NCBI GenBank assembly: GCA_034669905.1
Contig: JAXMOL010000039.1
Span: 1-64,000 of the forward strand
Direction: 5' to 3'
From: Candidatus Hydrogenedentota bacterium
GTDB taxonomy: Bacteria > Hydrogenedentota > Hydrogenedentia > Hydrogenedentales > JAEUWI01
DNA: 64,000 bases
Shown here one piece after another: positions 9,453-26,392 of this stretch. Each line of letters starts with the position of its first letter. Within the stretch, counting starts at the first letter, position 1. Both the position numbers and the translations under genes were made by a program. Under the pieces are notes generated by a model, which did not search any database, had not been told where the DNA came from, and saw only the letters and a list, made by a program, of their open reading frames with translations.

Positions 9453-12400
9453 GCAGCGATATTCGCGGACCCATTGCCTGGATGGCGCGCCATGGCGTAG
9501 CGCCTAATATTCTCATGGCGACCCTTATCTTGGGCGGCATCTTCATGACCACCCAGATTAAGCAAGAGATCTTTCCGGATTTCTCGCTGGACACCGTAAC
9601 GATCGTCGTGCCTTTTCCCGGCGCCAGTCCCGAGGAAGTGGAAGAAGGCATCATCCTCGCCATTGAAGAGGAAGTGCGCGGTCTCGACGGCGTAGAAGAG
9701 GTGCGCGGTGTAGCCTCGGAAGGCAGTGCCGCCGTGACGGTGGATATCCTGCTGGGGAGTGATCCCCAACAAGTTAATCAGGACATCCAGCAGGCTATCG
9801 ACCGGATTCGCGTTTTTCCAGAGGATGCCGAGGAGCCGATTATCGCCCTCAGCACCCGCCGTCGGGCGGTGATCGACCTCCAGGTGTACGGCGACGTGGA
9901 CGAGTGGTCCCTGCGCCAGGCGGCGGAACAGGTGCGTGATGGCCTGCTGCAGCACGAGAGTATCGCCCAGGTCGACTTGGACGGCGTGCGCGATCTGGAG
10001 ATCCAGATAGAGATCTCTCAGGAGACCCTGCGGGAATACGGGATTACCCTGGATGAAGTGGGGCGCATTGTCCAGGAATCCGCTTTTGACCGGTCCGGCG
10101 GTAAGGTGGAAACCCGCGGCGGGGAAATCCTGCTCCGTCTTCAGGAACGGCGCGACTGGGCCCGCGAGTTTGAAGATATTCCCATCATCACCTCGTCCAA
10201 CGGCACCGTCGTGCGTCTGGGCGACATGGGCACGGTACGCGAAGGCTTCGAGGACAGCAACACCTATGCGACCTTTGAAGGAAAGCGCGCCATTGCCATG
10301 ACGGTCTACCGCATCGGCGATCAGACTCCTATTGGTGTGGCCGATGCGGTGTGGGAATCCATGCCCAAACTCTTGACGGCCCTGCCACCTGATATCGAAT
10401 ATGCGGTGGTGGACGACGATTCGGAAATTTACCGCCAACGTATTGAGCTGTTGCTGAAAAACGGCTTTATCGGACTGTGTCTCGTGATGGTCATTCTCTC
10501 GACCTTCCTCGAGTTTAAGTTGGCTTTCTGGGTAGCTGCCGGGATTCCCAGTGCCTTCCTGGGTACCTTGCTCTTTCTGCCGATGTACGACGTGTCCATC
10601 AACATGGTCTCCATGTTTGCTTTCATTCTTGCACTGGGTATCGTGGTGGATGATGCCATCGTGGCCGGTGAAAATATCTACGAATACCGTCAGCAGGGCA
10701 TGACCAATATCGACGCCGCCATCCTGGGCGTCCGTGATATGGCGGTGCCCATTTCCTTCTCCATTCTGACGAACGTGGTCGCCTTTATGCCCCTGGCCTT
10801 CATGCCCGGCTTCATGGGAAAGATCTGGGCGGTCGTACCGCCTGTGGTGATAACCGCCTTCGCCCTCTCCTGGGTGGAAGCGCTTTTCATTCTGCCGGCC
10901 CACCTGGCGCATGTGAAGGAAGCCGGCACCACGGGGATCGGGGGTAAGCTTCACAGTATTCAGCAGGTCATTGCCCGGGCATTTACCCGCTTCGCCCAGA
11001 AGGTCTACGGACCCTTTGTGGACTTCGCCGTGCGCTGGCGCTACGGGACAATCGCCGTCATGCTCGTTATCCTGGCCCTCGTGCTCTCCATTCCGATCAG
11101 CGGGCGGATGGGTTTTATTCTGATGCCCCAGGTGGAAAGTGAATATGCGCAAGCCGAGGCCACCTTGCCTGTAGGGTCGCCCCGGGAGCGGGCGGACGAA
11201 GTGGTGAAACAGTTGGTAGACAGTGCCCAGGCGGTCCTCGCGAAGAACGGTGGTTCCGAATTGGGAAAGGGCGTGTCGGCAATAGTGAACGAAAACCAGA
11301 TTGAGGTCCGGGCCTATCTGGTGGAGTCCAGTCTGCGTAGCCTCTCGACGGCCCAGGTGACCCAGATGTGGCGCGAGGAATTGGGCGGAGAAATCCCCGG
11401 GCTGGAAAGCATGCGCCTGGCTGCCGATGCAGGGGGGCCGGGACGGGGACCCAAAGTATCCATCGAGTTGGCCCACCGTGATGTGGCGACCCTGGAACGG
11501 GCCTCGGAAGTCGTGGCCGAGCGGCTGGACCAGTTTTCCGTGGTAAAAGATATTGACGATGGTTACACGCCGGGCAAAATACAGTTGGACTTCAAAACCA
11601 CCGAGGAAGCCCGTGCCCTGGGCATTGATGCCACGGAAATCGCCCGGACAGTCCGCGGCAGTTTCTATGGGATAGAGGCTATCCGACAGCAGCGGGGGCG
11701 GAACGAAATTACCGTGCGCCTGCGACTGCCCGAGGAAGAGCGGAGCAGTGAGTCAGATATCGAGAATCTGATGCTCAGCACGCCCATGGGTGGAGAGGTT
11801 CCATTGTATCAGGTCGCAGAGGTGCAACGGGGACGGGCCTATACCGACATCGACCGTCGCAATGGTCGCCGCGTAGTTACCGTCACGGCGAACGTGGAGC
11901 CTGTGGGCGAGACCAGCAAGGTGCTCGCGGCCCTCAAATCGGAGGTGATGCCCGAAGTTCTGCGAGACATTCCCGGGCTGAGCTACTCCTTCGAAGGGCG
12001 CCAGGCCGATATGCGGGATTCGCTGAATTCTTTCATGTCCACGGTGACCATCGCCCTGATCATTATTTTCGTCCTGCTGGCTATTCCATTTCGGAGTTAT
12101 GTGCAGCCGTTGATTGTGATGACCGCCATCCCCTTCGCGGTGGTGGGGGCCATTATTGGCCACCTCATCATGGGCTTCAATCTCTCGATTATCTCTATAA
12201 TGGGCATTATCGCGTTATCCGGCGTGGTGATTAACGACGCCCTGGTCATGGTCGACTATGCCAATAAAAAGCGGAAAGAAGGTATGAGCGCCGTGCAGGC
12301 CATCGAGTCCGCCGGTGTGCGTCGTTTCCGCCCAATCTGGCTGACCACCCTCACGACGTTCTGCGGCCTGGCTCCCATGATTTTTGAAACGTCCCGACAG

Positions 12401-12610
12401 GCGCGTTTCTTAATTCCCATGGCCTTGTCGCTGGGCTATGGCATTGTCTTTGCCACCGCCATCACCCTCGTGCTCGTTCCGGCGCTTTACATCGTGGTGG
12501 AAGATATCATCGGTGTATGGTGTCGCATCTTTGGTGCCCCGGTAGACCACACGGAAGAGCGTCTGGAAGTCGACCCGGAAGGCGGACTGTCCGCCGAGAA
12601 TCCAATGTAG
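9449..12610 (+). CDS. RND efflux permease (AcrB/AcrD/AcrF family)
   Basis: 1053 aa; ALGIVVDDAIV, GVVINDA, RFRPI.LTTLTT..GL.P; 12-TM layout. Confidence 0.96.
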   Translation: MSSDIRGPIAWMARHGVAPNILMATLILGGIFMTTQIKQEIFPDFSLDTVTIVVPFPGASPEEVEEGIILAIEEEVRGLDGVEEVRGVASEGSAAVTVDILLGSDPQQVNQDIQQAIDRIRVFPEDAEEPIIALSTRRRAVIDLQVYGDVDEWSLRQAAEQVRDGLLQHESIAQVDLDGVRDLEIQIEISQETLREYGITLDEVGRIVQESAFDRSGGKVETRGGEILLRLQERRDWAREFEDIPIITSSNGTVVRLGDMGTVREGFEDSNTYATFEGKRAIAMTVYRIGDQTPIGVADAVWESMPKLLTALPPDIEYAVVDDDSEIYRQRIELLLKNGFIGLCLVMVILSTFLEFKLAFWVAAGIPSAFLGTLLFLPMYDVSINMVSMFAFILALGIVVDDAIVAGENIYEYRQQGMTNIDAAILGVRDMAVPISFSILTNVVAFMPLAFMPGFMGKIWAVVPPVVITAFALSWVEALFILPAHLAHVKEAGTTGIGGKLHSIQQVIARAFTRFAQKVYGPFVDFAVRWRYGTIAVMLVILALVLSIPISGRMGFILMPQVESEYAQAEATLPVGSPRERADEVVKQLVDSAQAVLAKNGGSELGKGVSAIVNENQIEVRAYLVESSLRSLSTAQVTQMWREELGGEIPGLESMRLAADAGGPGRGPKVSIELAHRDVATLERASEVVAERLDQFSVVKDIDDGYTPGKIQLDFKTTEEARALGIDATEIARTVRGSFYGIEAIRQQRGRNEITVRLRLPEEERSSESDIENLMLSTPMGGEVPLYQVAEVQRGRAYTDIDRRNGRRVVTVTANVEPVGETSKVLAALKSEVMPEVLRDIPGLSYSFEGRQADMRDSLNSFMSTVTIALIIIFVLLAIPFRSYVQPLIVMTAIPFAVVGAIIGHLIMGFNLSIISIMGIIALSGVVINDALVMVDYANKKRKEGMSAVQAIESAGVRRFRPIWLTTLTTFCGLAPMIFETSRQARFLIPMALSLGYGIVFATAITLVLVPALYIVVEDIIGVWCRIFGAPVDHTEERLEVDPEGGLSAENPM

Positions 12611-12789
12611 AAAGGGCGTGCCGGGTTCCCTGAAGTCGACTTGGTCGTATTCGCTGGTTTTTGGGATGCTGGACTGCATGGCATCCCTGTTCCAACCCAT
12701 GATGCTTCTCTTGCATACCGCTGGAGCAATTGATAGAGTGTGCGGAGTCATTGTCGGTATTGGAAGCTGGGGTGGGCAAGCGAGGTGAA

Positions 12790-14364
12790 TTGGAACTCTC
12801 AAGCGATACGTTCGACGTCATAATCTACGGGGCCACGCCAGCCGGCATCGCCAGTGCCGTGGCCGCGGCACGTATGGGACGCTCCGTTGCCCTTATCGAT
12901 ACCCACGCCCACATCGGTGGCATGGCCGCCAGTGGGCTGGGTAAGAGCGATGTAGAGAAGCCCGAGTACATTGGTGGGATCTTCAGCGAGTTTACCGGGC
13001 GCGTGCTCGGCCACTATGAGAGTGTGTTCGGTCCTCGTTCTAAAGAGGTGCAGCTCTGCAAGGCGGGGTACTATTACGAGCCCCATGTGGCGGAAGCCGT
13101 TTTCGAGGCCATGGTGGGGGAGCACGAGACCATCACCGTGCTGCGGCTCCACCGTCTCCTCGCTGCAACGACCCAAGGCGGGCGTCTCACGGCGATCCAT
13201 CTCCTCGATATGGAAGAAGAGGAGGCCGTAGACCTGACCGGCGCAGTATTCCTCGACGCGTCCTATGAAGGTGACCTCTATGCGGCCGCGGGGGCAGGCT
13301 TTCGGCTGGGCCGAGAAGGGCGGAACGTCTTTGACGAACCCCTGGCCGGCTATATTTACTACGATTTTGACAACGGTGTCATGTTGCCCGGCACCACGGG
13401 CGAAGGGGATAACGGACTGCCCGCCTGGACCTACCGCCTTTTTCTATGCTCGGAGCGGGAAAATAGTGTGCCCATTCTGGAGCCGCCCCACGACTATGAC
13501 CGAAAGGTCTACACACCCTATTTCGAAGACCTGGAAGCCGGGCGACTGGGGGGGCCTAAAAACTTCCATGAAGGCCGCGGATATTTTCCGGCCCACTTTA
13601 ACACCATGGTGCGTGCCCTCTCCGTTACCCGTATGCCCAATGGGAAGAATGATGTTAACATCAATCCCCGTCCCCTGGCCTTTCCGTTTCCCGAGGAAAA
13701 CGCTGGATATACGGAGGGGGACTGGGAAACCCGTCAGCGTATTGAAGCCCGGCATCGCAATCTGGCCCTGGGGCTGCTCTGGTTTCTTCAGAATGACGAG
13801 GAGATTCCCGAGGCCCACCGGATGATGGCCCAGGAGTATCAATTACCCCGGGATGAATTCGTCGATAATGGCCACTTCCCCTGGCAACTCTACGTGCGGG
13901 AAGCACGGCGGCTGGACGGGTGTTATACCATCACCCAACATGACGTCTCTATCGGTGAAGGTAAGCCCCGGGAGTTTCATCACGACGATGTCATCGCGAT
14001 GGGCGAATTTCCCATTGACAGTTTTCCCGTGCACAAACGTCAGCCCCACGACCGCGTGGTGCTCGAAGGATACCTCGGCATGCTGGGCCACCTGACCCGG
14101 CCCTACAAGATTCCCTATCGTGCTATGCTGCCGAAAGAGATTGATGGTCTTATTGTGCCGGGTGCCCTGTCGGCATCCCATGTAGCCTATTCCTCCATAC
14201 GCATGGAGCCCACGTGGATGGCCCTCGGCCATGCGGCCGGAGTCGCCGCCCATCTGGCAATTGCCCACGATTGTCCGGCCCGTGACGTTCCCATCGATGA
14301 GCTCCGAGATACCCTCCGAAAGCAGGGGCAGGTGGTTGAGCCTCCCGCCGGTTCCCTGTCGTAG
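12790..14364 (+). CDS. FAD-dependent oxidoreductase (FAD_oxidored-type)
   Basis: DVIIYGATPAGI Rossmann motif, GGM.ASGLG, DASYEGDL, LYVREARR, Y.IPYRA.LP, SHVAYSSIRMEP; TTG 12790 follows a GAGGTG RBS. Confidence 0.88.
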   Translation: MELSSDTFDVIIYGATPAGIASAVAAARMGRSVALIDTHAHIGGMAASGLGKSDVEKPEYIGGIFSEFTGRVLGHYESVFGPRSKEVQLCKAGYYYEPHVAEAVFEAMVGEHETITVLRLHRLLAATTQGGRLTAIHLLDMEEEEAVDLTGAVFLDASYEGDLYAAAGAGFRLGREGRNVFDEPLAGYIYYDFDNGVMLPGTTGEGDNGLPAWTYRLFLCSERENSVPILEPPHDYDRKVYTPYFEDLEAGRLGGPKNFHEGRGYFPAHFNTMVRALSVTRMPNGKNDVNINPRPLAFPFPEENAGYTEGDWETRQRIEARHRNLALGLLWFLQNDEEIPEAHRMMAQEYQLPRDEFVDNGHFPWQLYVREARRLDGCYTITQHDVSIGEGKPREFHHDDVIAMGEFPIDSFPVHKRQPHDRVVLEGYLGMLGHLTRPYKIPYRAMLPKEIDGLIVPGALSASHVAYSSIRMEPTWMALGHAAGVAAHLAIAHDCPARDVPIDELRDTLRKQGQVVEPPAGSLS

Positions 14365-14596: not shown

Positions 14597-16051
14597 ATGT
14601 GTCGCTATTTCACCTTACTATTGCTCGTGGGCGTTACACTCTTTATGGGCGGTAGTCCGGCCCCTGCGCAAGGGCCCTTGGGGAACGATCAGTACGCCTT
14701 TAAGATTTACGCGGTCGATGTCGGCTATTACCCCATCGTGCAGGTTTACTTCCGCACCTGGGACCAGAACCGGGATCCGCTGCGTAACGTCAACTATGCC
14801 AACATTGGCGTAATGGTAAAGGGACGGAATTACGAGCCCACAATTTTCGACCCCCAGACCCGTCAGACCCAGTACACCATTGAGACCCTGCAGAACCGCG
14901 AGGAGGGATTCCGAACCGTCCTGGTCCTGGACTGCAGTCTCTCCATGGCCGGCAAGCCCTTCGCCGATGCCCAGAACGCCTTGATTCGCTACGTGGAAGC
15001 CAAGCGTCCCGCCGACCAGATCGGCATCATTGCAATTCGTGATGAGGCGGAAGGCTTTCAGTTGGTATCGGGTTTTGAAAAAGATCCGACGCTGCTTTTT
15101 CAGCGTATCGCCGATATCAAATGTGACGGCAAGACTACCCGCCTTTACGACGCCATCGCGGGTGCCATGGAAATGGCGGGCGCCGCGTCCCAGGGGAGTT
15201 CGAGTAATGCGGCGGTGGAGCATTCCGTACTCAATTCCATCGTGGTACTTTCGGATGGGCATGATGAAGGCAGTGCCGTGGCCCGAGACGAATTGATGAA
15301 CCGTATTGGCCAATTGGATGTGCCTGTACCCATCTTTTCGTTGGCCTACTCCAAATCGAACACAGACCATTTCCGGAACCTGGAGGCCCTTTCGAAGGGG
15401 AGCTTCGGCCGCTATTGGACCCACAGTGATTCCCAGGAATTTGCGGCGACGGTCCAGAAGATTCATGATATTAATCGCTCGGATTACGTGGTGAGTTTCC
15501 GCTCCTATGTCGACGTGGACGGTGGCCAGCATCCCTTTAAGATTGGCCTCGCCTATCCGTCCAATACTGGACGCTTTATCTGGGAAGATGGCAACTTTGA
15601 AGCCATTGATTCACCGGCCCAATATATTCCCGAGACCCAGGCCAAGTACCAGGCGACACAAGCATTGATTCCCGCGCTCGCCAACGCGTGCCCCTACGTA
15701 GGTTGCGCCCCTGCAGCCATGGCCGCGCCACCCGCCGCGGCACCTGCGCCTTCAACAGCACCTGCGCCTTCAACAGCGCCGCCCGTCCCGGCAGAAGCGA
15801 CTCCGGCCGCCGCGCCAGTGACGGAAACCGCAGATACGACTGCAAGTAAAGAGGAAGAAGAAGAGAAATCCTTCCTGGAAGAAAATGGCGCCCTCCTGGG
15901 ACTTGGGGCGGGTATACTTGCCTTGCTCATTGCCATTCTCAGCTGGGTCCGAGGCGGAGGAGGCCCCAAGGGCGGCGGTGGCACGTCTCCCGGTGGCCGC
16001 CATTCGGCACCACGCCTGGGTTCTTCCTACGACGTTGATACCGAGCTCTAA
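14597..16051 (+). CDS. Exported von Willebrand factor A domain protein with Pro/Ala stalk, C-terminal TM anchor and short cytoplasmic tail
   Basis: Signal peptide from ATG 14597 (GGGAGA RBS); MIDAS DCSLS...T...SDG; APAPST x2 linker; TM GALLGLGAGILALLIAILSWV. Confidence 0.88.
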   Translation: MCRYFTLLLLVGVTLFMGGSPAPAQGPLGNDQYAFKIYAVDVGYYPIVQVYFRTWDQNRDPLRNVNYANIGVMVKGRNYEPTIFDPQTRQTQYTIETLQNREEGFRTVLVLDCSLSMAGKPFADAQNALIRYVEAKRPADQIGIIAIRDEAEGFQLVSGFEKDPTLLFQRIADIKCDGKTTRLYDAIAGAMEMAGAASQGSSSNAAVEHSVLNSIVVLSDGHDEGSAVARDELMNRIGQLDVPVPIFSLAYSKSNTDHFRNLEALSKGSFGRYWTHSDSQEFAATVQKIHDINRSDYVVSFRSYVDVDGGQHPFKIGLAYPSNTGRFIWEDGNFEAIDSPAQYIPETQAKYQATQALIPALANACPYVGCAPAAMAAPPAAAPAPSTAPAPSTAPPVPAEATPAAAPVTETADTTASKEEEEEKSFLEENGALLGLGAGILALLIAILSWVRGGGGPKGGGGTSPGGRHSAPRLGSSYDVDTEL

Positions 16052-16054
16052 GCT

Positions 16055-16095
16055 GCGCATGGGGCGGGAGGGCGGAGGTGCCCTCTCGCCTGCGC
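16055..16095. other. Strong intercistronic hairpin between the vWA and FHA-ABC genes
   Basis: GGCGGGAGGGC-GGAGGT-GCCCTCTCGCC with outer GCGCA/TGCGC; no U-tract. Confidence 0.55.
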
Positions 16096-16120
16096 GGTAG
16101 CCTGAATAATTGGGGATACC

Positions 16121-18628
16121 ATGTCGAAACGCAAGGCTGTTGCCTACCTTGAAGCCTCCGACCCCTTATTGTTGCAGCCCCATTACCCGATCTTTGAAGG
16201 TGGGGTGAAGGTTGGTCGCGATTCCGATGTGTGTGAAATTATTCTCTCCCGGGAGTTTGTCTCACGCCGTCACTGTGCCCTGCGTGCAGAAGACGACGGG
16301 GTGGTGGTTGAAGATCTGGAAACCACCAATGGCACCTTTGTAAATGGCGTTCAGGTACGCCGTCAGCGACTGAATCCCGGCGACCGCATTGGGCTGGGGA
16401 AGGCCTCGCCCCACCACTTCATCTTCACGTTAAGTGACGAGACGCCCAAGCGCAAATACGTCTTGCCGACCCAGAAGGTCTACCGTATCGGCCGTGCGCC
16501 TGAGTGCGACCTGCCCCTGTTACGGGACCCCACGGTTTCCAATCGCCACGCCCGTCTCTTGGTACGTGCCAATAAAATGACCATCGAAGACCTGGGGAGT
16601 TCCAGTGGTACCTTCGTCAACGGTCAGTGGGTGCGGGTTGCCGACATCAGTCCCGCCGACCAGGTACGTATCGGTACCACGGAACTGAATTTCCAGCAGG
16701 GCGTGGAAGGCATGCGGGTCACCGCCCAGACCCGGCAGAACCAGGTCCGTCTCGAAGCCCGGGACCTCGTGCGCACCCATGGGAAGCTCCAACTCCTGAA
16801 AAACATCAACCTGGTCATCGAGCCGGGCGAGTATGTCGGGGTGCTGGGGCCCAGTGGGGCCGGTAAATCGACCCTGCTCAACGCCCTCAATGGCTTTTAC
16901 CCGGCGACGGGGGGGCAGGTCCTCATGAACGGCACCTCCCTCTACGATAGCTACGACATGTATCGCAATGCCATCGGCTATGTGCCCCAGGATGACATTA
17001 TCCACCGGGAATTATCTGTCGAGCGCTCGCTGGCGTACACGGCTCAGTTGCGCCTGCCCCGTGATACGGGACCGGAGCAGCTGGAAGAGCAGGTCACCAG
17101 CGTGATTGAGACGTTGGGCTTGAGTCACGTGCGCCAGAGTCCAGTGCTGAACCTGAGTGGTGGCCAGCGGAAGCGCGTCTCTATCGGCTGTGAATTGCTT
17201 ACCAAGCCGAGTCTACTCTTCCTCGATGAGCCCACCTCGGGGCTAGATCCGAGCACGGAAGAAAAGCTCATGCGTCACTTCCGGCAGATGTCGGAGCAAG
17301 GGCAGTCGGTCATCCTCACGACCCACATTCTCTACAACCTCGACCTCCTCGATATGGTGATTCTCCTGTCCCGGGGGCGTCTGGTCTATTTTGGACCCAC
17401 CTCCGAAGTCTGCCAGCATTTCGATAGCCCCAATCAGCGCGTTGAGCGGCCCATTGATATCTTTGATCTCCTCGAGCCCGATACGACGGATCCCTCGGTG
17501 CGGGAAGAACGGGCTGAGCACTATGCGCGGGTTTATCAGGGTTCTCAATTGCACAAGGAATACGTGGCCGGTCGTTCGACCAAACCTCCGAAATTTGATG
17601 TCGGGGTTCAGGTGAACGCCCGGGAGACCGTGGCCCCCGGAGAACGCCCCAAGTCACGCAGTGGATTCGGTAGGCGTACCCGCGGACTGCTGAAAGGGAT
17701 GGCCAATGTGGGGCAGTTTATGGTGCTCACGCGCCGTACCCTGGACCAGAAGCTGGCCTTCCCCAAGCGGATGCTGATTCCCCTTTTGACGCCCCTGGTG
17801 CTGGCCATTTTGACGGCCACCCTGGAATTGGGGGACCAGCAGGCCCTGACCCAGGCCCAATTGGACTTTGAACAGGCCAATCCCCAGTTTCTGGGTATGC
17901 TGGACCAGCCTAATATGCCGGTCAGCCGGGAGGAGTTTATTGGTCTGCGATTTCAGGGCTTCGGGGGGCTGGCCATTCCGCTGGCCTTACCCCTGACGAT
18001 GGTGATGACCGCCGTATTTCTCGGTACCCTGTCAGCCTGTCTGGAGATCTCAGGCGAACGTCCCATATACCTTCGGGAACGGGCTGTAAACCTGGGAATC
18101 GTCAATTATCTCGGCAGTAAACTACCCGCCCTGTTCCTCCTCTCTGTGGTACAATGTTTTATGTATGTCGCCTGTGTGATGGCCGTGCTCCATCCACCAG
18201 GTGTGAATGTGTTAGGTGTTGTGCTTATCTGTATTGCGGTGGCCTGGGTCTCCTCGATCATCGGACTCTTTATCTCGAGTCTGGACCCGACACCCGGTCA
18301 AAACTCGGTGATGCTGGCCGTGATTGCCATGTTGCCCCAGATGCTCTTTTCCGGCGCGATGGCTCCGGCCTTCTTTGATGGTATGCATCCCGTGACCCAG
18401 GGCGTGGCCGCCATACTGCCCGCACGTTGGGGCTTTGAGTTGCTCCTGACGGTGCTTTACGAAGAACCGTCCTGGGCGCGAGACCTGATCACGGCCGCAA
18501 GCCCATCCGGGATGGGTTTTGGTTTTGGCACCGAGGTCATTAAGACCAACGGTGCGGCCCTGGTGGCCCTGGCCGCAGGATATTTTGTGGCGACCTGTGT
18601 AAGCCTGCGACGCTTTGACAAACTCTAG
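16121..18628 (+). CDS. FHA-FHA-ABC ATPase-ABC2 membrane fused exporter (Rv1747-like architecture)
   Basis: Two FHA domains (GR...VSRRH...TNGTFVNG; GR...VSNRH...SSGTFVNG); Walker A GPSGAGKST, LSGGQ, LFLDEPT, TTH; C-terminal multi-TM domain with ER.IY.RER. Confidence 0.93.
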   Translation: MSKRKAVAYLEASDPLLLQPHYPIFEGGVKVGRDSDVCEIILSREFVSRRHCALRAEDDGVVVEDLETTNGTFVNGVQVRRQRLNPGDRIGLGKASPHHFIFTLSDETPKRKYVLPTQKVYRIGRAPECDLPLLRDPTVSNRHARLLVRANKMTIEDLGSSSGTFVNGQWVRVADISPADQVRIGTTELNFQQGVEGMRVTAQTRQNQVRLEARDLVRTHGKLQLLKNINLVIEPGEYVGVLGPSGAGKSTLLNALNGFYPATGGQVLMNGTSLYDSYDMYRNAIGYVPQDDIIHRELSVERSLAYTAQLRLPRDTGPEQLEEQVTSVIETLGLSHVRQSPVLNLSGGQRKRVSIGCELLTKPSLLFLDEPTSGLDPSTEEKLMRHFRQMSEQGQSVILTTHILYNLDLLDMVILLSRGRLVYFGPTSEVCQHFDSPNQRVERPIDIFDLLEPDTTDPSVREERAEHYARVYQGSQLHKEYVAGRSTKPPKFDVGVQVNARETVAPGERPKSRSGFGRRTRGLLKGMANVGQFMVLTRRTLDQKLAFPKRMLIPLLTPLVLAILTATLELGDQQALTQAQLDFEQANPQFLGMLDQPNMPVSREEFIGLRFQGFGGLAIPLALPLTMVMTAVFLGTLSACLEISGERPIYLRERAVNLGIVNYLGSKLPALFLLSVVQCFMYVACVMAVLHPPGVNVLGVVLICIAVAWVSSIIGLFISSLDPTPGQNSVMLAVIAMLPQMLFSGAMAPAFFDGMHPVTQGVAAILPARWGFELLLTVLYEEPSWARDLITAASPSGMGFGFGTEVIKTNGAALVALAAGYFVATCVSLRRFDKL

Positions 18629-18665
18629 TTTTAACCATCCCGATGGGTAGCGCCCCGGGTGGTCG

Positions 18666-20432
18666 TTGAGCAAAAAAGGTGATGTGGTGGACGATCTGAA
18701 TATAGCCGAGGAATTCATTGGTGACCGCTACCAGGTCGTGCAGCATCTGGGTGCGGGGGCTATGGGGAGTGTCTATCTCGCTTCCGATACCCAGCTCAAC
18801 CGACAGGTCGCCCTGAAGGTACTCAAGGGCGAGTGGGTCAGCCGTCCTGAAGTGGCAAAGCGCCTGGAGATGGAATGCCAGCTCATGGCCCAGCTGGGTC
18901 CCCACAACAATATCGTCACCCTCTTTGATCGCATCAACCATGGGGACGCCGTCGTCCTGGTTATTGAGTATGTGGCCGGAGAGAATGTGGCCGACGTCCT
19001 GGATCGCGCCCGGGAAATGAATCGGGAAAAAGAGTCTTCCCGCAAGACGACCCCGGTGCTTGCCGGGGTGTCGACCATCGCTCTCACTCCGGAGGACGCC
19101 ATCGATATTACCCTCCAGTGTCTGAGCGGTCTTGATTTCGCCCACAGCCGGGGCGTTATTCATCGGGATATCAAACCCGCCAACATCATGGTTTCTCACG
19201 ACCACAACGGCAACATCGTAGCCAAGATTACCGACTTCGGTATTGGCAAGGCCATCGCCGGGCTCGATGGGGAAACGGCACCAGCCATGACGGCCCTGAC
19301 CCGTGCGGGTGGGCCTGGACCGGGTACGCCCGCCTATATGGCACCGGAACAAATTGACCAGGCAAGATTTGGTGAGGTGGGGCCCGCAGCCGATCTCTAC
19401 GCGCTGGGCGTATCCCTCTATGAAATGCTTTCTCTCGGGTTACCGTTTCACGGGACCTACACCGAACTGCTCCACCTCCATACCAACGTGGAAGCACCGG
19501 ATTTACGAAAGACCATCCCGGGCCTGAGTCCCGCCCTGGCGGCCGTGGTGCGCAAGAGTCTGGCCAAGGAGCAAAAGGATCGCTACGAGTCGGCCCATCG
19601 CTTTCGCCTCGAACTGGCCGCCGCAACCCGGGATGCGATGCCCGCGTGGTCACCGGATACGGGAGGGCATGGCCGCTCTAAGACGCCGTTGATTTTTGGT
19701 GCGGTTGCGGCAGTGGCCCTTTCAGCCGGTGGTTACTTTTATCTTATGGGCTCCGATACGCCCAAGAGCGAGGAGCCTGTGGTTGCAGAACCCGTGGCTG
19801 CGGAGGTCGAGGCGCCGGTAGCGCCCGTAGCGCCGCCCCTTACTACATCCACACCCGATTCGCCGGAGATACCGGTGGCGGCCACGGTCACACCCACGCC
19901 GGCGACGGACGGTGCGGTTCCGCCAGCGATGCCCGCAGCGACAACGCCCGCGACGCCTTCCCCCCAGGTGACACCGCCAACTCCAACTCCGGCGGCTCCC
20001 GTGGCCCAGCCCGGGGCGTCGGTGATTGCCGCGAAGAACAGCGCCGAGGCGGCACGGGCCACGGCGGTGCAACGATTCGATGGGAAGACCCCGAGCGACA
20101 ACGCTGATTTTTCCCAGGGACAGGAATGGTTGGCGAAGGCCCAGGCCGCAGAAACAGCGGGGGACTACGACGCGGCACGGAGCTATTTGCTCCAGGCGAC
20201 CCAGCGATTTGACGGTGCGAAACCGGCTCCTGCCGCTCCCGCCCCCAAGGTCGTGGCCGTTAAGCCGGCCCCCAAACCCGCGCCTAAGCCCAAACCAGCA
20301 CCCGCACCGGAGCCTGAGCCAGCGCCTGTGGTAAAAGCGCCCGATCCTGCGCCAGAACCCGATCCACCTGCGCCCTCCAGTGGGGGGGGATTCCGGGCGG
20401 GGAAGAGTAAAGTAACCCATACCAATCCGTAG
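18666..20432 (+). CDS. Hanks-type membrane Ser/Thr protein kinase with Pro-rich extracytoplasmic region
   Basis: LGAGAMGSVY, VALK, HRDIKPAN, DFG, GTPAYMAPEQ, DLYALG; TM FGAVAAVALSAGGYFYLM; TTG start is approximate. Confidence 0.95.
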   Translation: MSKKGDVVDDLNIAEEFIGDRYQVVQHLGAGAMGSVYLASDTQLNRQVALKVLKGEWVSRPEVAKRLEMECQLMAQLGPHNNIVTLFDRINHGDAVVLVIEYVAGENVADVLDRAREMNREKESSRKTTPVLAGVSTIALTPEDAIDITLQCLSGLDFAHSRGVIHRDIKPANIMVSHDHNGNIVAKITDFGIGKAIAGLDGETAPAMTALTRAGGPGPGTPAYMAPEQIDQARFGEVGPAADLYALGVSLYEMLSLGLPFHGTYTELLHLHTNVEAPDLRKTIPGLSPALAAVVRKSLAKEQKDRYESAHRFRLELAAATRDAMPAWSPDTGGHGRSKTPLIFGAVAAVALSAGGYFYLMGSDTPKSEEPVVAEPVAAEVEAPVAPVAPPLTTSTPDSPEIPVAATVTPTPATDGAVPPAMPAATTPATPSPQVTPPTPTPAAPVAQPGASVIAAKNSAEAARATAVQRFDGKTPSDNADFSQGQEWLAKAQAAETAGDYDAARSYLLQATQRFDGAKPAPAAPAPKVVAVKPAPKPAPKPKPAPAPEPEPAPVVKAPDPAPEPDPPAPSSGGGFRAGKSKVTHTNP

Positions 20433-20500
20433 TGCAGCAAAGAGGAAAATTTCGGTGCCCCAGGGCATATGGATGAAAACCAAGTGAGAAGGATAGGACC

Positions 20501-21157
20501 ATGAAAAGAAAATCGATAGCGGGTGTGTTAATTGTGTCATTGGTGGCCACGGGCATCTTGACTGGCTGTGAAACGACCGGACAGTCCGCGGGGCTCGGCG
20601 CGGTCATTGGTGGTGCGGCTGGTTATGCCATTGGCGGCGAAAAGGGCGCCCTTATCGGTGCGGCAGTCGGCGCTGGTGCGGGCTTTGTCATCCACAAGGC
20701 GAAAGAGCGCCGGGTTAAGAATGCCGAGGAAACCGCCACCGAATATAAGTATGAGCCCAGTGAGGGACTCAAGGCGGATTTGCGCCCGGCCACGTCGGCT
20801 TCGCCCAGCACGGTACCCCAGGGTTCCACCGCGAATGCCGAGCTGGAATACTACATTCTCGGTGCGGGAGATGATGGCACCGCCGTCCATGAGAAACAGA
20901 TTATTATCCAGGATGGTACCGAGCTCGTTACCCTCCGCGATCAATCGGTTTCCCGGGTAGACGGCACATGGAATGTTTCCACGCCCATCGAAGTCGATTC
21001 TTCGGTCGCGCCGGGAAACTATGACTTGGTCCAGACCATTTCGGTGGCGGGGAACAACATGTCCACCCGCACGCCCCTGACGGTGACGACCAAGACGGCC
21101 ATGGCCGACAGTCGTGTCATTTTCGGACAGCCGGAGCCTTATACGATTTCCCGCTGA
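20501..21157 (+). CDS. Glycine-zipper lipoprotein with C-terminal Ig-like beta domain
   Basis: Lipobox LTG-C; GLGAVIGGAAG...GALIGAAVGAGAG; beta-rich C-terminus (PGNY.L.QTI). Confidence 0.85.
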   Translation: MKRKSIAGVLIVSLVATGILTGCETTGQSAGLGAVIGGAAGYAIGGEKGALIGAAVGAGAGFVIHKAKERRVKNAEETATEYKYEPSEGLKADLRPATSASPSTVPQGSTANAELEYYILGAGDDGTAVHEKQIIIQDGTELVTLRDQSVSRVDGTWNVSTPIEVDSSVAPGNYDLVQTISVAGNNMSTRTPLTVTTKTAMADSRVIFGQPEPYTISR

Positions 21158-21190
21158 TCCGCGACGGACTTAGAACAGGTGATAAAGTTT

Positions 21191-21224
21191 CGCCGGAGGT
21201 CGATCTAGACCTCCGGCGTCGTTT
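21191..21224 (+). terminator. Probable intrinsic terminator closing the vWA/FHA-ABC/kinase/lipoprotein operon
   Basis: Perfect 11-bp stem CGCCGGAGGTC-GATCTA-GACCTCCGGCG followed by TCGTTT (weak U-tract). Confidence 0.65.
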
Positions 21225-21297: not shown

Positions 21298-22503
21298 ATG
21301 GCGTGGAATCAGTTCGGTGTACGTGGAAACTGGCAGGCAATCATCCCGGGGTTGTTAACCCTCTTGGTGGCAACGACGGCCCCGGCGGCGGATTATCCCC
21401 ATCCGAAGGACCACCCCGAATCCACCTTGATGTTGACGGGGAAGTGGGTGCCGGAGAATACCCACGACATCGATTTCGATCTGCTGCCCCGCATTCCTTC
21501 GAAGCACACCGTGGTGAATGATGCGCGCCCTCATGATGGTGTGAATCAGCACAACTATCTCGCCTTTTACGACGGCCAGTATTGGGCCATGTGGAGTGAC
21601 GGTCCCCGTGTCGAGGACATGGCCGGTCAGCGGGTGAAGTACGCCACGAGTCCGGACGGCCTGGACTGGAGTGACGCCCAATTCCTTACGCCCATACCGC
21701 CCAATTCCGGGCCCGATTCGCCGGTCTACAATACGCGCTCCAAAGAGGGCTTTCGCTGGATTTCCCGGGGACTTTGGGTGCGAGACGGAAAACTGATTGC
21801 CCTGGCCTCCCTGGATGAGTCGGCGGGGTTCTTTGGGCCGAGCCTCGCCCTTCACGCCTTTCAATACAATGGTGAGACCAAGGCATGGGACAGTCTTGGT
21901 GTGGTCTATGACAATGCCATTAACAACTTTGCGCCCAAGAAGATCCCGACTGGGGAGTGGATGATGACCCGCCGCACCTTCGACCGCCATGTCTCTTTTC
22001 TGGTCGGCGGTACGGAAGCCATCGATCAGTGGGAATCCTTTGAAGCGGTCTCCTACAGCGATTCCCGGTTGCTCGCCGAGGAGCCCTATTGGTGGGTGCT
22101 GCCCGACAAGAATCTGTTGGCCCTCTTCCGCGATAACAAGCGGAGTGGCTATCTGTTTCGTGCCTTCTCCACCGACAACGGACGCACCTGGAGTGACCCG
22201 GTGAAGACCAACTTCCCGGATGCTACGTCCAAATTTAACGGACTCCAGATGAGCGACGGACGTTATGTCCTGGTGTCCAATGCCAATCACGAAAAGCGCG
22301 ACCCCCTCGTGCTTTCCATCAGCGACGACGGTATGGTCTTTAATAAGATGGGTTATCTTACGGGTGGCCGATGGATCGACTATCCCCACGTCATCGAACA
22401 CGATGGCCACCTCCTCGTCGCCTTCGCCGGCTCCCGGAAACAGACCTGTGAAGTCTTGAAAATCCGCATCGCCGATCTGAGTGTGTTGGACGTGCAGGAG
22501 TAA
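21298..22503 (+). CDS. Secreted BNR/Asp-box (sialidase-like) beta-propeller protein
   Basis: Signal peptide; Asp-boxes TSPDGLDWS, STDNGRTWS, SDDGMVF; RDPL and DYPH motifs. Confidence 0.85.
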   Translation: MAWNQFGVRGNWQAIIPGLLTLLVATTAPAADYPHPKDHPESTLMLTGKWVPENTHDIDFDLLPRIPSKHTVVNDARPHDGVNQHNYLAFYDGQYWAMWSDGPRVEDMAGQRVKYATSPDGLDWSDAQFLTPIPPNSGPDSPVYNTRSKEGFRWISRGLWVRDGKLIALASLDESAGFFGPSLALHAFQYNGETKAWDSLGVVYDNAINNFAPKKIPTGEWMMTRRTFDRHVSFLVGGTEAIDQWESFEAVSYSDSRLLAEEPYWWVLPDKNLLALFRDNKRSGYLFRAFSTDNGRTWSDPVKTNFPDATSKFNGLQMSDGRYVLVSNANHEKRDPLVLSISDDGMVFNKMGYLTGGRWIDYPHVIEHDGHLLVAFAGSRKQTCEVLKIRIADLSVLDVQE

Positions 22504-22510
22504 AGAAATG

Positions 22511-22705
22511 TGAAGTTTGAAGGGTGAAGGGTGAAGGGTGAAGGGTGAAGGGTGAAGGGTGAAGTCTTTGGCTCTAAATCCTCCACGCTTTCTATAAAAC
22601 GCTTTCGTGCGCAGCTATTGCGAGGATACACCACCAGCCGAATTTCGCTGACCTCATCTTTCAAACTTCACGCTTCACGCTTCACGCTTCACCCATCACC
22701 CTTCA
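22511..22705. repeat. Two inverted heptamer tandem arrays (TGAAGGG-type x8 and its complement x8)
   Basis: 22511-22566: tgaagtt,(tgaaggg)x6,tgaagtc; 22650-22705: gacctca,tctttca,aacttca,(cgcttca)x3,cccatca,cccttca; 83-bp spacer. Confidence 0.92.
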
Positions 22706-22723
22706 AAACCGGAATGCCAATAG

Positions 22724-24319
22724 ATGCAGCATCTCCCATTCTTAATTCACCATTCCCTATTCGCCAGTCCTGCCACGCCGGCGATTCGTCCCCTCGATAT
22801 TGCGGCGGTGGTCGTTTATCTGGCGGTGATGGTGGGGGCGGGGCTCTATTTTGCACGGAAGAACACCAGCACGGAAGCCTATTTCGTCGGCAATCGTAGT
22901 TTTCCGGGCTGGGTGCTGGGGCTCTCCATGCTGGGCACCATCATCAGTTCCGGCACCTTTCTCGCCCTGCCCGCGGCCGCCTACGTGTTGGATTGGCGCC
23001 AGTTGAGTGTGAACCTCGTGCTGCCCTTTGTGGCCGTACTCGCGGTCGTGCTCTTCATTCCCTTTTTTCGTCGGGGCAAGCTTACGACCGCCTTTGAGTA
23101 TCTCGGGCGGCGCTATGGCACCGTGCCCCGAATCTACGGCACCGTGAGCTTCATCCTGTTGCAACTTATCCGTATGGCCCAGATACTCTTTCTGGTGAGC
23201 TTACCCATCCAGTTCCTCACCGGCGCGCCCATCACCCTGGTCATTGTGGTGAGTGGCGTTTTTATCGCCTTTTACACCATTGCCGGGGGGATAGAGGCCG
23301 TGGTCTGGACCGATGTGATTCAGGCCCTCATCCTCATGGTAGGGGGGATGTTCTGCTTCATCGCCGTGGCCCTCGATTTGCCTGGTGGGCTGGGGGAAAT
23401 CATAGCCACCGGCGCCGCCAACGACAAATTCAGCCTGGGCAGTTTTGATTGGAACCTCAATGAGCGCACCTTCTGGACCGTGCTTATCCTCGGCGTTATC
23501 AACTGGCTGGCCATCTACTCCGGCGACCAGAATATGGTGCAGCGCTATGCCGCCGCCAAATCAACCCGGGAAGCCCGCAAGGCCACCTTGCTCTACTCCG
23601 CCATCGCACTGCCGCTCTGGATTATGTTCTTCTTCGTCGGCACCAGCCTCTACGTTTACTACCAGGCCTTTCCCGACCCCGCGACTACCGATATGGCCGC
23701 CGACCAGGTCTTGCCCTACTTCATCCTGACCAAGATTCCGGCCGGGGTCGCCGGCATCGTCATCGCCGCCGTGATGGCTGCCGCCATGAGTTCCCTGGAC
23801 TCGGGGATCAATGCGATTTCGACCGTGTCGGTGGTGGACCTGATGAAGCCCTATCTCGCGAAGGGGCGGAGCGATGGCTATTACCTCATGGCCGCACGGC
23901 TCATCGCCACCGTGACGACGACGTTGGTGGTGTTGGGGGCGATAATCTTCAGCAACCTCGAAAAAGAGAGCATGAACGACCTCAGCCTCATCGTGACCAG
24001 CGTCTTTGGCGGGTGCTTGATGGGCCTTTTTCTGTTGGGATTCTTCACGACCCGTGTCGATGGCAGGGCCGCGATTGGTGCCATGGTCTTGGCCATTTCC
24101 TTCAACATCTACCTGGGCATGGGGCTCGCCGGTCTCTTGCCCGAGGCCATCACCTTTCCCGCCCACAGCTATTGGACCGGCGCCCTGGTGAACGGCGTGT
24201 TTCTGGTTGCGGCCTACGCCATTGGATGCCTGCGGGGTAATCGCAGCGATTTGACGGGGCTCACCGTGTGGACCATGGGGAGCAAGGGCTCGGGTGGCCT
24301 GTCTCAGGAAGAGCAGTAG
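22724..24319 (+). CDS. Sodium:solute symporter (SSS/SLC5 family)
   Basis: YFVGNRS.PGW..GLS, T.FEYL..R, YT..GG.EAVVWTD..Q, DQ..VQRY, AAMSSLDS.INA. Confidence 0.95.
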   Translation: MQHLPFLIHHSLFASPATPAIRPLDIAAVVVYLAVMVGAGLYFARKNTSTEAYFVGNRSFPGWVLGLSMLGTIISSGTFLALPAAAYVLDWRQLSVNLVLPFVAVLAVVLFIPFFRRGKLTTAFEYLGRRYGTVPRIYGTVSFILLQLIRMAQILFLVSLPIQFLTGAPITLVIVVSGVFIAFYTIAGGIEAVVWTDVIQALILMVGGMFCFIAVALDLPGGLGEIIATGAANDKFSLGSFDWNLNERTFWTVLILGVINWLAIYSGDQNMVQRYAAAKSTREARKATLLYSAIALPLWIMFFFVGTSLYVYYQAFPDPATTDMAADQVLPYFILTKIPAGVAGIVIAAVMAAAMSSLDSGINAISTVSVVDLMKPYLAKGRSDGYYLMAARLIATVTTTLVVLGAIIFSNLEKESMNDLSLIVTSVFGGCLMGLFLLGFFTTRVDGRAAIGAMVLAISFNIYLGMGLAGLLPEAITFPAHSYWTGALVNGVFLVAAYAIGCLRGNRSDLTGLTVWTMGSKGSGGLSQEEQ

Positions 24320-24449
24320 CGGCCTCGCGTCGGGAGAAGTCTGTTGCATGGCCATCGTCTCGTCACAGGTACGATATTCATAGACCTTCGAGGTAATGCC
24401 GTGCTACAATTCCGCGCTTCAAATTCCGCCCTAACCCCGAGGTAATGCC

Positions 24450-25355
24450 ATGGCGCCCTCCGCCGCTCCCCAGAAGTTCACGGTTGGCCTGCTCCAATTG
24501 CAGGTAGGCCCCGACCCGGACGCCAATACGAAGAATGCCCTCCAGTGGCTCGAAAAGGCCGCTGCCCAGGGGGCCCAGGTGGTCTGTCTGCCGGAGTTGT
24601 ACCGCAGTCAGTATTTCTGCCAGAAGGAAGATGTGGACCTCTTCGAATTGGCGGAGCCCATCCCCAACGAGAGCATCGAAGCCTTCCAATCGGCGGCTGC
24701 CCGGCTGGCCGTTGCGGTTCTGGTGCCCGTTTTCGAGCGTCGGGCCGCTGGGGTCTATCACAACAGCCTCGTCTGTATTGACGCCGATGGCACCCTCGTG
24801 GGCATCTACCGGAAGATGCACATCCCCGATGACCCGGCCTACTATGAGAAATTCTACTTCGCACCCGGTGACCTGGGCTTCAAGAACTTTGACACCCGCT
24901 ATGGACGGGTGGGCACCCTCATCTGCTGGGACCAGTGGTATCCGGAAGGCGCCCGTCTTACGGCGCTCCGGGGGGCATCCATCTTGTTTTACCCCACGGC
25001 TATCGGCTGGCACCCCTACGAAAAAGAGCAGTACGGTGCGGCCCAGCGCGATGCCTGGATGACGGTCCAACGGGGCCACGCCATTTCCAACGGTATCTAT
25101 GTGGCCGCGGCCAATCGCGTCGGCTTCGAGCAGCCCGTGGCCGAACAGGCGGGCATTGAGTTCTGGGGCTCATCGTTTATCGCCGATCCCCAGGGCGTCA
25201 TCATTGCCGAAGCCAGCACGGACAACGAAGAAGTGCTTCTTGCGGAAGTGGACCTCGCCCACCTGGAAAACATCCGGCGCAATTGGCCCTTTCTGCGGGA
25301 CCGGCGCATTGATGCCTATGGCGACATCACCCGCCGCTTTATTGACGAGTCCTAG
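24450..25355 (+). CDS. aguB: N-carbamoylputrescine amidase (carbon-nitrogen hydrolase)
   Basis: LPEL, YRKMHIPDDP.YYEKFYF.PGDLGF, ICWDQWYPE, YPTAIGW, WPFLRDRR; adjacent to agmatine deiminase. Confidence 0.92.
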   Translation: MAPSAAPQKFTVGLLQLQVGPDPDANTKNALQWLEKAAAQGAQVVCLPELYRSQYFCQKEDVDLFELAEPIPNESIEAFQSAAARLAVAVLVPVFERRAAGVYHNSLVCIDADGTLVGIYRKMHIPDDPAYYEKFYFAPGDLGFKNFDTRYGRVGTLICWDQWYPEGARLTALRGASILFYPTAIGWHPYEKEQYGAAQRDAWMTVQRGHAISNGIYVAAANRVGFEQPVAEQAGIEFWGSSFIADPQGVIIAEASTDNEEVLLAEVDLAHLENIRRNWPFLRDRRIDAYGDITRRFIDES

Positions 25356-25360
25356 GGCCC

Positions 25361-26392
25361 ATGGATAGCGCCCGACGTCTCCCAGCGGAATGGGAAGAGC
25401 ATTATGCGACCCTCCTGGCCTGGCCCCTGAACAAGGCCGATTGGCCCGGGAAGTTTCAACCCATCCCCTGGGTTTTTGCCGAGATGATCCGCCAGTTGAG
25501 CGTGGGGGAGCGGGTGGATCTCATCGTGCCCAATGGCTGTCTCGAAGAAAAGGCCCGCCGGACCCTGTCTAAGGCCCACGCCAATCTGGATAACCTTCGT
25601 TTTCTTCATCACGCCCTCGACCGGGGATGGATGCGGGATTGCAGTCCTGCTTTTGTGCGCTGTGGTGAGGAAGTCGAAGCGGTGCATTTTGGCTTTAACG
25701 CCTGGGCGAAATACAACGACTATGCCCGTGATGCCACCGTGCCAACCTTCCTTGCGGAAGTAGATGAGATGTCTTGTGTGCCCGCCATGCACGGGGAGCA
25801 CCACGTGGTTTTGGAGGGGGGCGCCATCGACGGGAATGGTGCGGGCACGCTGCTCACGACCGAAGAATGTCTCCTGCACCCAGATACCCAGGTGCGTAAT
25901 CCAGGCTTTACGCGGGAAGACTACGAGGCGGTGTTTCAGAAGTATCTGGGTATTGAAAAGGTCCTGTGGCTGGGAGAGGGTATCGCGGGGGATGACACCC
26001 ACGGCCATGTGGATGATCTCTGTCGTTTTGTAAATGAATCGACGGTGGTGCTGTGCCAGGAGCCCAATGAGCACGACGCCAATCATCGGGCCCTCGCGGA
26101 GAATCGGGAGCGCCTGGAAGGGGCGACGACGGCCACCGGTGCCGCTATCGAGGTGGTGGGGCTCCCCATGCCAGCACCCCTCTATTTTGACGGCACCCGT
26201 CTCCCGGCGAGCTATGCGAATTTTTACATCGGGAACGAAGTGGTCCTGGTGCCGACCTTCAACGACGTGCAGGACTACCGTGCGTTGGGTATCCTCGCGG
26301 AGCTCTTCCCCGACCGCCGTGTTCTCGGGATCCACGCGGTGGATTTGGTCTGGGGCTTTGGTACGGTGCACTGCCTGAGCCACGAGCGCTAG
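25361..26392 (+). CDS. aguA: Agmatine deiminase / peptidylarginine deiminase family
   Basis: PAEWE.H, WMRD, FNAW..KY, LEGG.ID.NG.G..LTT..CLL, DDT.GHVD, ASY.NF, G.VHC. Confidence 0.93.
   Translation: MDSARRLPAEWEEHYATLLAWPLNKADWPGKFQPIPWVFAEMIRQLSVGERVDLIVPNGCLEEKARRTLSKAHANLDNLRFLHHALDRGWMRDCSPAFVRCGEEVEAVHFGFNAWAKYNDYARDATVPTFLAEVDEMSCVPAMHGEHHVVLEGGAIDGNGAGTLLTTEECLLHPDTQVRNPGFTREDYEAVFQKYLGIEKVLWLGEGIAGDDTHGHVDDLCRFVNESTVVLCQEPNEHDANHRALAENRERLEGATTATGAAIEVVGLPMPAPLYFDGTRLPASYANFYIGNEVVLVPTFNDVQDYRALGILAELFPDRRVLGIHAVDLVWGFGTVHCLSHER

Follow-up and report, generated by a model that had tools for sequence, protein, structure and literature searches.

Rv1747 of Mycobacterium tuberculosis carries two forkhead-associated (FHA) domains, a nucleotide-binding domain (NBD), and a transmembrane domain (TMD) in one ATP-binding cassette (ABC) chain, encoded beside the membrane Ser/Thr kinase PknF. 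It is activated by PknF phosphorylation, with Thr150 and Thr208 phosphorylated (PMC3138270; statements on cited sources, here and below, refer to their available sections), and it may export phosphatidylinositol mannoside (PIM) glycolipids, a role called unproven in its source (PMC5549992). In the trigger of type VI secretion systems (T6SS), comprising PpkA, Fha1, TagQ/R/S/T, and PppA in Pseudomonas aeruginosa and TssW-PpkA-Fha in Acidovorax citrulli, an outer membrane lipoprotein or protein activates or places the inner membrane kinase PpkA, which has a long disordered periplasmic region, and an FHA reader and an ABC ATPase are found in the same locus (PMC13713981, PMC12607579). The locus described here lies in a 64,000-nucleotide stretch (the window) from a Candidatus Hydrogenedentota bacterium (contig JAXMOL010000039.1, here C39, of a 7.4-Mb genome that is 96% complete) and encodes a von Willebrand factor A (vWA) domain protein, an FHA-FHA-NBD-TMD exporter, a Ser/Thr kinase, and a lipoprotein. 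These four genes are a conserved operon-like module in several phyla. Judged from the sequences, the module is real and uncharacterized, and it appears to be Rv1747/PknF-like in its working and T6SS-trigger-like in its build while failing a defining test of each. Its features are the following.

14597-16051, plus strand: gene for the exported vWA protein (484 aa)
15950-16048, plus strand: Ser/Thr-rich cytoplasmic tail of the vWA protein with an acidic-Thr-hydrophobic end, a candidate phosphorylation site and FHA ligand
16121-18628, plus strand: gene for the FHA-FHA-NBD-TMD exporter (835 aa)
18666-20432, plus strand: gene for the membrane Ser/Thr kinase (588 aa; an alternative GTG start is possible ~20 bp downstream)
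20391-20426, plus strand: degenerate copy of a 12-residue kinase tail motif (aa 576-587)
20501-21157, plus strand: gene for the lipoprotein (218 aa)
21191-21218, plus strand: terminator-like hairpin ending the module (11-bp stem, 9 GC pairs, modest T tail)

The original prediction, made from the window's letters, had described four co-oriented genes with gaps under 70 bp closed by a hairpin, and this layout was confirmed: the gaps are 69, 37, and 68 bp from 5' to 3', and the hairpin (-24.8 kcal/mol over a 48-nt stretch) ranks first among 17 terminator-like sites, a class for which shuffles predict 9.0 +/- 3.0 sites. The predicted parts list likewise held up in Pfam and hydropathy analyses. The vWA protein of the window (VWA_2, E 1e-11) has a signal-like N terminus, the vWA domain, a Pro/Ala stalk of ~60 residues, a transmembrane helix at aa 433-451, and a 33-aa cytoplasmic tail, signal peptides in this protein and its homologs having been judged by hydropathy and alignment; its MIDAS (metal ion-dependent adhesion site; D112/S114/S116/T181/D220) is intact, as had been claimed. 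The exporter combines two FHA domains, ABC_tran, and ABC2_membrane in one chain with six transmembrane helices, consistent with the predicted fusion of FHA to the transporter. The kinase (Pkinase, E 4e-44) has a transmembrane helix at aa 342-360 and, as foreseen, a Pro-rich outer part, a periplasmic stalk of 228 aa that is 21% Pro and 21% Ala, contains one TPR-like hairpin (TPR_14, below cut-off), and may be comparable to TonB. The lipoprotein has the expected LTGC lipobox (residues 20-23, Cys23) and a glycine zipper at aa 25-65, followed by a C-terminal immunoglobulin (Ig)-like beta-sandwich; its match to Gly-zipper_YMGG (PF13441; E 1e-6, 28.5 bits) falls just below the 28.9 cut-off. PP2C is absent from the window, in line with the prediction, its profile matches being confined to two other contigs of the genome.

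The proposed likeness to Rv1747 and PknF stands, as an FHA-FHA-NBD-TMD chain is encoded in one operon with a membrane kinase. Rv1747 has Thr150 and Thr208 in the linker between its FHA domains, whereas the module exporters have no conserved threonine there, and the module is for this reason regarded as working like Rv1747 without being filed as its ortholog. Unlike Rv1747, the module also has a fixed vWA partner, a lipoprotein, often an M48 peptidase, and a Gram-negative-type envelope around it. The likeness to the T6SS trigger would be one of design, homology being shown for no more than the folds of kinase, FHA, and vWA: the module lacks tss genes, carries its FHA domains on the transporter, and encodes vWA as a separate gene, and its kinase bears a Pro/Ala stalk without vWA, whereas PpkA combines a kinase with vWA (PMC1262709). 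No FGE-sulfatase (TagR) domain was found in the four module proteins, to which the search for TagR was confined, and no NCBIfam T6SS model matched them. In gene types alone, the module also resembles the Deinococcus radiodurans operon DRA0331-DRA0334, which encodes vWA, kinase, FHA, and PP2C proteins; in the available part of that preprint no transporter or lipoprotein is named, unlike the situation here (bioRxiv 10.64898/2026.01.23.701218).

Conservation of the gene neighborhood was assessed in a GTDB scan from whose 109 confirmed vWA loci the 80 best were retained; 43 of the 80 were dropped from the neighborhood count as too short, leaving 37 with at least 5.5 kb on each side. Of these 37 loci, 36 have the exporter beside the vWA gene and 36 the kinase; 29 carry the lipoprotein, 22 an M48 peptidase, 5 DUF4359, and 2 PP2C. 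The single locus without an exporter match, L092, has its exporter gene on the other strand, in divergent orientation. Because the profiles had been built from these same GTDB loci, the count was repeated on metagenome loci, and it agreed: among the 19 well-covered loci of 79, the exporter was present in 19, the kinase in 18, the lipoprotein in 13, M48 in 8, DUF4359 in 2, and PP2C in 5. The gene set is thus syntenic in other genomes, as the prediction had required of it, and conservation of this kind across phyla places the grouping far beyond chance. According to record titles, which may be wrong, the module occurs in Hydrogenedentota, Chromatiaceae, Methylococcaceae, Nitrosomonas, Thermodesulfobacteriota, Sumerlaeota, and further phyla represented by one label each; one record titled Klebsiella pneumoniae (L055) has a kinase that groups tightly with Pseudomonadota genomes, and the bin is probably mislabeled. 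The closest homologs that bear a name are labeled Candidatus Hydrogenedentes/Hydrogenedentota. No viral copy was confirmed among 21 pattern matches on viral contigs.

The module exists in two forms. Type A (proteobacterial/desulfobacterial) has the order exporter-kinase-vWA-lipoprotein-M48, mostly zinc-ribbon kinases, and a degenerate first FHA domain (FHA1); type B, the form in the window, has the order vWA-exporter-kinase-lipoprotein, lacks M48, and usually retains an intact FHA1. The commoner form has five genes including the M48 peptidase, whose HExxH motif is present in 38/38, and sometimes PP2C. In a quick tree that included the genome's other kinases, the kinase domains of the two types formed separate clades (type A, 47 rows with support of 100; type B, 13 rows with support of 99), while in a tree of their own the vWA proteins of both types formed one clade; the kinase domain was apparently replaced between the forms. 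The vWA protein is the best-conserved part between them (43-46% identity), compared with 30-33% for the full-length exporter, 29% for the lipoprotein, and 26-28% for the kinase. Several loci depart from these arrangements. L092 (381-11475) has divergent halves with two kinases, one half holding exporter, lipoprotein, and M48 and the other vWA and DUF4359; by eye, only the kinase of the exporter half has a strand-like tail, and both tails score low. DUF4359 (~110 aa) is an optional component (L054, L058, L068, L072, L073, L092, L100, L102), and in L073 a second kinase ends, by eye, in DUF4359-like sequence.

The vWA protein is tied to the FHA-bearing exporter. Among 61 related genomes, 13 had a strong vWA match (E < 1e-90), four more having weak matches only, and a match to the exporter TMD was found in 12 of the 13 vWA-bearing relatives versus none of the remaining 48. 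When 1.84 billion representative proteins were searched with a profile, 41 were returned at E < 1e-30 and then a tier of ~500-residue proteins (E about 1e-30 to 1e-21); these nearest outside relatives of the module vWA combine vWA with a C-terminal FHA domain in 28 of 32 scanned, and 72 of 74 proteins in that size range have a transmembrane helix. The module vWA proteins are a clade of their own (SH-aLRT 100). The original prediction had taken vWA to be split from the kinase, by comparison with PpkA, and this was not upheld: vWA follows the exporter, its nearest relatives are vWA-transmembrane-FHA chains, so that the natural split is that of vWA from FHA, and the apparent kinase-vWA fusions in L058 and L099 were rejected as upstream out-of-frame sequence. 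Module and single chains share the same logic of vWA outside and FHA inside, with the difference that in the chains FHA follows the transmembrane helix, whereas the vWA protein of the window stops after its 33-aa tail and FHA is encoded by the next gene. Most module vWA proteins, unlike these chains, lack a transmembrane helix.

The description of vWA as a membrane anchor applies to the window but not to the family: the anchor is found in the window, in 6 of 80 GTDB loci, and, among the 120 best database matches, in 39, and most members are soluble. The anchored proteins form one clade (17 rows, support 98) within an unresolved basal split of the vWA tree, and the anchor can for that reason be called neither ancestral nor regained. 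The MIDAS positions are each kept in 72-73 of 73 aligned homologs (Ser and Thr scored as equal). From its co-occurrence with the exporter and its vWA-transmembrane-FHA relatives, vWA is the predicted periplasmic partner of the exporter; no clear acidic MIDAS ligand conserved across both forms was seen in the exporter outer loops. An AlphaFold2 (AF2) model (pLDDT 87) places the vWA domain within a beta-sandwich, and its best Foldseek match is ArnAB (8s05; E 3.5e-13, TM-score 0.46), with ITIH1 and a Catenulispora vWA protein also near; the vWA alignment, run as a profile against solved structures, gave 0 matches, and Atlas searches returned only unannotated vWA clusters and glycine-zipper clusters. 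The modeled topology is the one described for ArnB/vWA2: in the Sulfolobus vWA protein ArnB, too, vWA is set into a beta-sandwich, a helical part lies at the C-terminal end, and MIDAS is intact, and the FHA protein ArnA binds its phosphorylated C terminus (PMC6509490). ArnB is cytoplasmic and regulates archaellum genes, whereas the module vWA is exported, and the two share 14% identity at the TM-score given above; even so, the Thr-bearing tail in the window may echo the FHA-bound end of ArnB. The inner tails of vWA proteins with a transmembrane helix are 27% Ser/Thr versus 13% in the core, and an acid-Thr-hydrophobic pattern, picked after inspection of the tails, occurs within the last 22 aa in 19 of 39 such homologs, many of them close kin (shuffled mean 2.1, maximum 8 in 1000 shuffles). 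By analogy with ArnB, a phosphorylated vWA tail may provide a second FHA ligand in the clade of the window. In L069, L083, and L208 the vWA gene is duplicated in tandem upstream of the exporter, and one L083 copy has a lipobox-like N terminus.

The second association within the module, and the one that is new here, is between a kinase tail motif and the lipoprotein. HRD and DFG are present in 63/63 kinases, and nearly all module kinases have a transmembrane helix and a low-complexity stalk that is often rich in Pro and mostly spans 130-250 residues. In many of them the C-terminal end is a 12-residue motif that reads approximately Trp-x-hydrophobic...Lys-Thr-Asp. On a leave-one-out profile, and with 4 kinases on short contigs, kinases without a stop codon, and the fusion protein of L064 set aside, the motif scored at least 8 bits in 34 of 51 kinases with a downstream lipoprotein gene and in 0 of 10 without one. 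A hold-out set of metagenome loci gave 19/29 and 0/8, respectively, once 5 unlabeled tails and 3 that duplicated training rows had been excluded. The motif is present in two separate kinase clades; it persists where M48 is missing (L039, L093) and is lost where vWA remains and the lipoprotein is gone (L077, L106, L102), a pattern that points to the lipoprotein as the partner of the tail. On a profile of eight type-B tails, the tail of the window kinase scored 7.8, the top among the 30 kinases of the genome (next 5.7), a value matched by 0.4% of 1500 sampled open reading frame (ORF) ends and by 1 of 500 shuffles. The kinase likely docks on the lipoprotein through the motif at the end of its stalk, as the co-occurrence suggests. 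A complex prediction from 39-row alignments for the Ig domain of the L039 lipoprotein with the kinase tail scored 0.28 against a mark of 0.32, its controls being unfolded, and counts neither for nor against the contact.

In the lipoprotein, an AF2 model of aa 61-218 (pLDDT 90) contains seven long strands, for which Foldseek returned generic Ig-like folds only; its Atlas neighbors have matches to the same glycine-zipper families. The lipoproteins YfgH and SlyB stabilize the outer membrane under stress and are modeled as rings (bioRxiv 10.64898/2025.12.22.696046). Compared by zipper only, they share with the module lipoprotein a lipobox followed by a glycine zipper, to which the latter adds the Ig-like domain and the link to a kinase. 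By this analogy and by its lipobox, the module lipoprotein probably sits and clusters in the outer membrane. Its family appears to belong to the core envelope lipoproteins of the order, and the module copy appears to be a general envelope lipoprotein that was recruited. Around stand-alone paralogs in 15 relatives and this genome, a ~440-aa downstream gene recurs in a few genomes and gives no hint of what the paralog does.

The exporter retains the residues expected of an active ATPase and of phosphothreonine-binding domains. The Walker A Lys, Q-loop Gln, LSGGQ, Walker B Asp-Glu, and His are invariant in 55/55 exporters; the binding residues of the second FHA domain (FHA2) are conserved at Gly-Arg, Ser, and His in 55/55 and at Asn in 51/55, with Ser replacing this Asn in the window, where FHA1 has Gly-Arg, Ser, His, and Asn all intact. 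In NCBIfam, ABCG-type models come closest, though below cut-off, and comparison with solved structures gave generic ABC chains only. In the kinases, an activation-loop Thr-x-x-hydrophobic pattern occurs in 47 of 51 type-A proteins, and this is the pattern preferred by FHA domains (PMC3138270). The FHA domains would thus bind the kinase once it is phosphorylated, and not the linker of the exporter. In L064 (5059-9857), a kinase-FHA-ABC fusion is followed by a second, module-type kinase; an exporter-kinase ORF in L076, whose junction resembles a frameshift read-through, was left out of the count. The window kinase has, as do only its closest relatives, a Thr-rich insertion in the kinase domain (aa 112-140, window ~19000-19090) containing two Thr-x-x-Leu stretches on which FHA domains could dock. 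That the kinase controls the ABC protein, or is controlled by it, in some manner is quite likely.

How the parts may work together can be put as a model in which a lipoprotein-tethered kinase senses envelope disturbance and gates the exporter through the FHA domains, with vWA as the exporter's periplasmic partner; on the sequence patterns and the analogies above, this account is the preferred one, at a likelihood just short of even. Disturbance of the outer membrane would cause the glycine-zipper lipoprotein to cluster, kinases tethered to it by the stalk-end motif would be paired and autophosphorylate, and the exporter would dock on the phosphorylated kinase by its FHA domains and switch on. 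The vWA protein would act at the periplasmic face of the exporter, and M48 and PP2C would be optional parts for repair and reset. A more specific version, in which the C-terminal strand of the kinase, on a TonB-like proline stalk, grips the outer membrane lipoprotein, reads outer membrane damage or spacing, and activates a complex of a lipid exporter with vWA, is more doubtful. 

A number of observations weigh against the preferred model. The lipoprotein is missing at 8 of the 37 well-covered loci, and its family occurs in 48 of the 61 relatives, mostly outside the module; together with a stand-alone paralog in this genome (G000:C41 61057-61788, minus strand, 39% identity), this implies a module-independent role. 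Among lipoprotein-associated kinases, 17 of 51 and, in the hold-out set, 10 of 29 fall below the 8-bit mark; the mark and the anchors were fixed after the scores had been seen, related sequences do not count as independent, and two or more negatives of the hold-out set are very similar to negatives used in training. On the general profile the window kinase itself reaches 3.9 bits, short of the mark, and its tail aligned in two different registers, and in the close relatives L035, L036, and L037 the lipoprotein is kept and the kinases end in helical repeats without the motif. The one vWA-bearing relative with no detected exporter (G030) has its vWA gene beside a different kinase. The segment that joins the two FHA domains is 24-60 residues long (median 32) in 55 exporters; none of its columns reaches 60% Thr, and 44 of 55 have some Thr at varying positions. 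Finally, no cargo-related gene was recognized in the 8 of 10 recurring neighbor families that were scanned, leaving the exporter cargo unconstrained; from the ABCG-like fold and Rv1747, it is most likely lipid or lipid-linked.

This lack of a cargo gene is also the starting point for the strongest alternative, in which the ABC protein serves for sensing or mechanical transduction and not for export of a cargo: together with vWA it would respond to a ligand in the periplasm or to the state of the membrane and pass the signal to the kinase, other FHA proteins being the outputs. No outer membrane channel, adaptor, or biosynthetic gene was recognized among the recurring neighbor families (8 of 10 scanned), the TagS/T ATPase is required upstream of PpkA and has no known cargo (PMC13713981), the vWA-transmembrane-FHA relatives resemble receptors, and the genome encodes 13 other FHA proteins (15 FHA matches, two in this exporter) that could receive such a signal. 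Set against this are the full ABCG-like exporter layout with its invariant ATPase motifs and the placement of FHA on the transporter, which together with the kinase-FHA-ABC fusion indicates a reader of phosphorylation, as in Rv1747; this alternative is accordingly unlikely, though it deserves to be taken seriously. For the genome as a whole, 30 Ser/Thr kinase genes and 14 FHA-domain proteins were counted, with a single FHA-ABC exporter and a single vWA protein of the module family.

The module could instead be a contact or adhesion device: the vWA protein would act through its MIDAS as an adhesin or receptor that binds an outside protein and would give the kinase its main input, with lipoprotein and peptidase helping in assembly or processing. 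Its high conservation between the forms, its intact MIDAS, the ~60-residue stalk that holds it in the window, and the vWA domain of PpkA (PMC1262709) would fit such a role. However, a Sec-type signal and the absence of a surface-display gene among the recurring neighbors point to a protein in the periplasm, most members have no anchor, and vWA tracks the exporter while the kinase tail tracks the lipoprotein and not vWA. A contact device is for these reasons improbable.

The relation to T6SS bears on a further alternative. The module had been described as lying without a T6SS nearby, and this is correct for the window, where neither TssC nor TssK gave a match, but the genome does carry a T6SS on contig C9, with TssC, TssK, TssA, VgrG, TssL, and TssM (G000:C9 ~26000-59500; L029, L030); a 4340-aa ORF lies just upstream on the opposite strand. 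No FHA match falls within the C9 locus, and no T6SS-type Fha (TIGR03354) exceeds its cut-off anywhere in the genome. This gap, together with TssC being found in all nine genomes of its genus, would be explained if the module steered the T6SS of its genome in trans, replacing PpkA/Fha/TagQRST. Among the 61 relatives, TssC occurs in those 9 and in 0 of the other 52 in the order; vWA and TssC coincide in 6, vWA alone is found in 7 (five 96-100% complete, two 80-83%), and TssC alone in 3. The module is therefore without TssC in 7 of 13 vWA genomes, and 3 of 9 TssC genomes lack vWA. Across the 80 GTDB module genomes, a set that overlaps the 61 relatives and for which completeness is not given, TssC was matched in just 23 and had no match in 57, including five cultured Chromatiaceae (L063, L075, L080, L095, L108), and the FHA domains of the module are fused to a transporter. 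The prediction of a stand-alone module, not always accompanied by a T6SS, is upheld; the module is independent of T6SS, T6SS regulation as its general role is largely refuted, and control in trans in this genome is very improbable.

A chance cluster of unrelated envelope genes, to which the unrelated flanks (RND pump, FAD oxidoreductase, and sialidase-like protein, variable beyond the closest relatives) might point, is refuted to the extent that hardly any likelihood is left to it, as this gene set reappears in different phyla, in two orders, despite the apparent replacement of the kinase domain. The flanks at 6556-14364 and 21298-26392 of the window contain the RND efflux set, the FAD oxidoreductase, and the sialidase-like BNR protein, and by eye also a sodium:solute symporter and a nitrilase-like/agmatine-deiminase-like pair; flanking genes are common only to the closest relatives. 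Within the module, a strong GC-rich hairpin at 16055-16098 occupies the gap between vWA and exporter genes (-41.4 kcal/mol over a 75-nt stretch, unshuffled) and could stabilize or attenuate the message and so leave vWA in excess.

No description of this gene set was found in the open-access literature, though subscription journals and supplements may hold a mention, and the available sections of Kaur et al. 2020 (PMC7159879) and of PMC12419801 do not describe it. Apart from the T6SS trigger, little is known of how Gram-negative Ser/Thr kinases sense the outer membrane, and even for Rv1747 it is an open question what an FHA-bearing ABC exporter carries and how it is controlled. To these the module brings a contact that can be named, between a 12-residue kinase tail and a 140-residue Ig domain, and a fixed periplasmic partner for an exporter; with copies in sulfur bacteria and methanotrophs that are cultured and harmless, both questions become directly testable. 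The module may also hint at a role for the large, unstudied family of vWA-transmembrane-FHA proteins. If the more specific version with the gripping kinase strand is true, it would represent a damage-sensing circuit of several phyla in which the design of the T6SS trigger serves repair of the envelope instead of a weapon.

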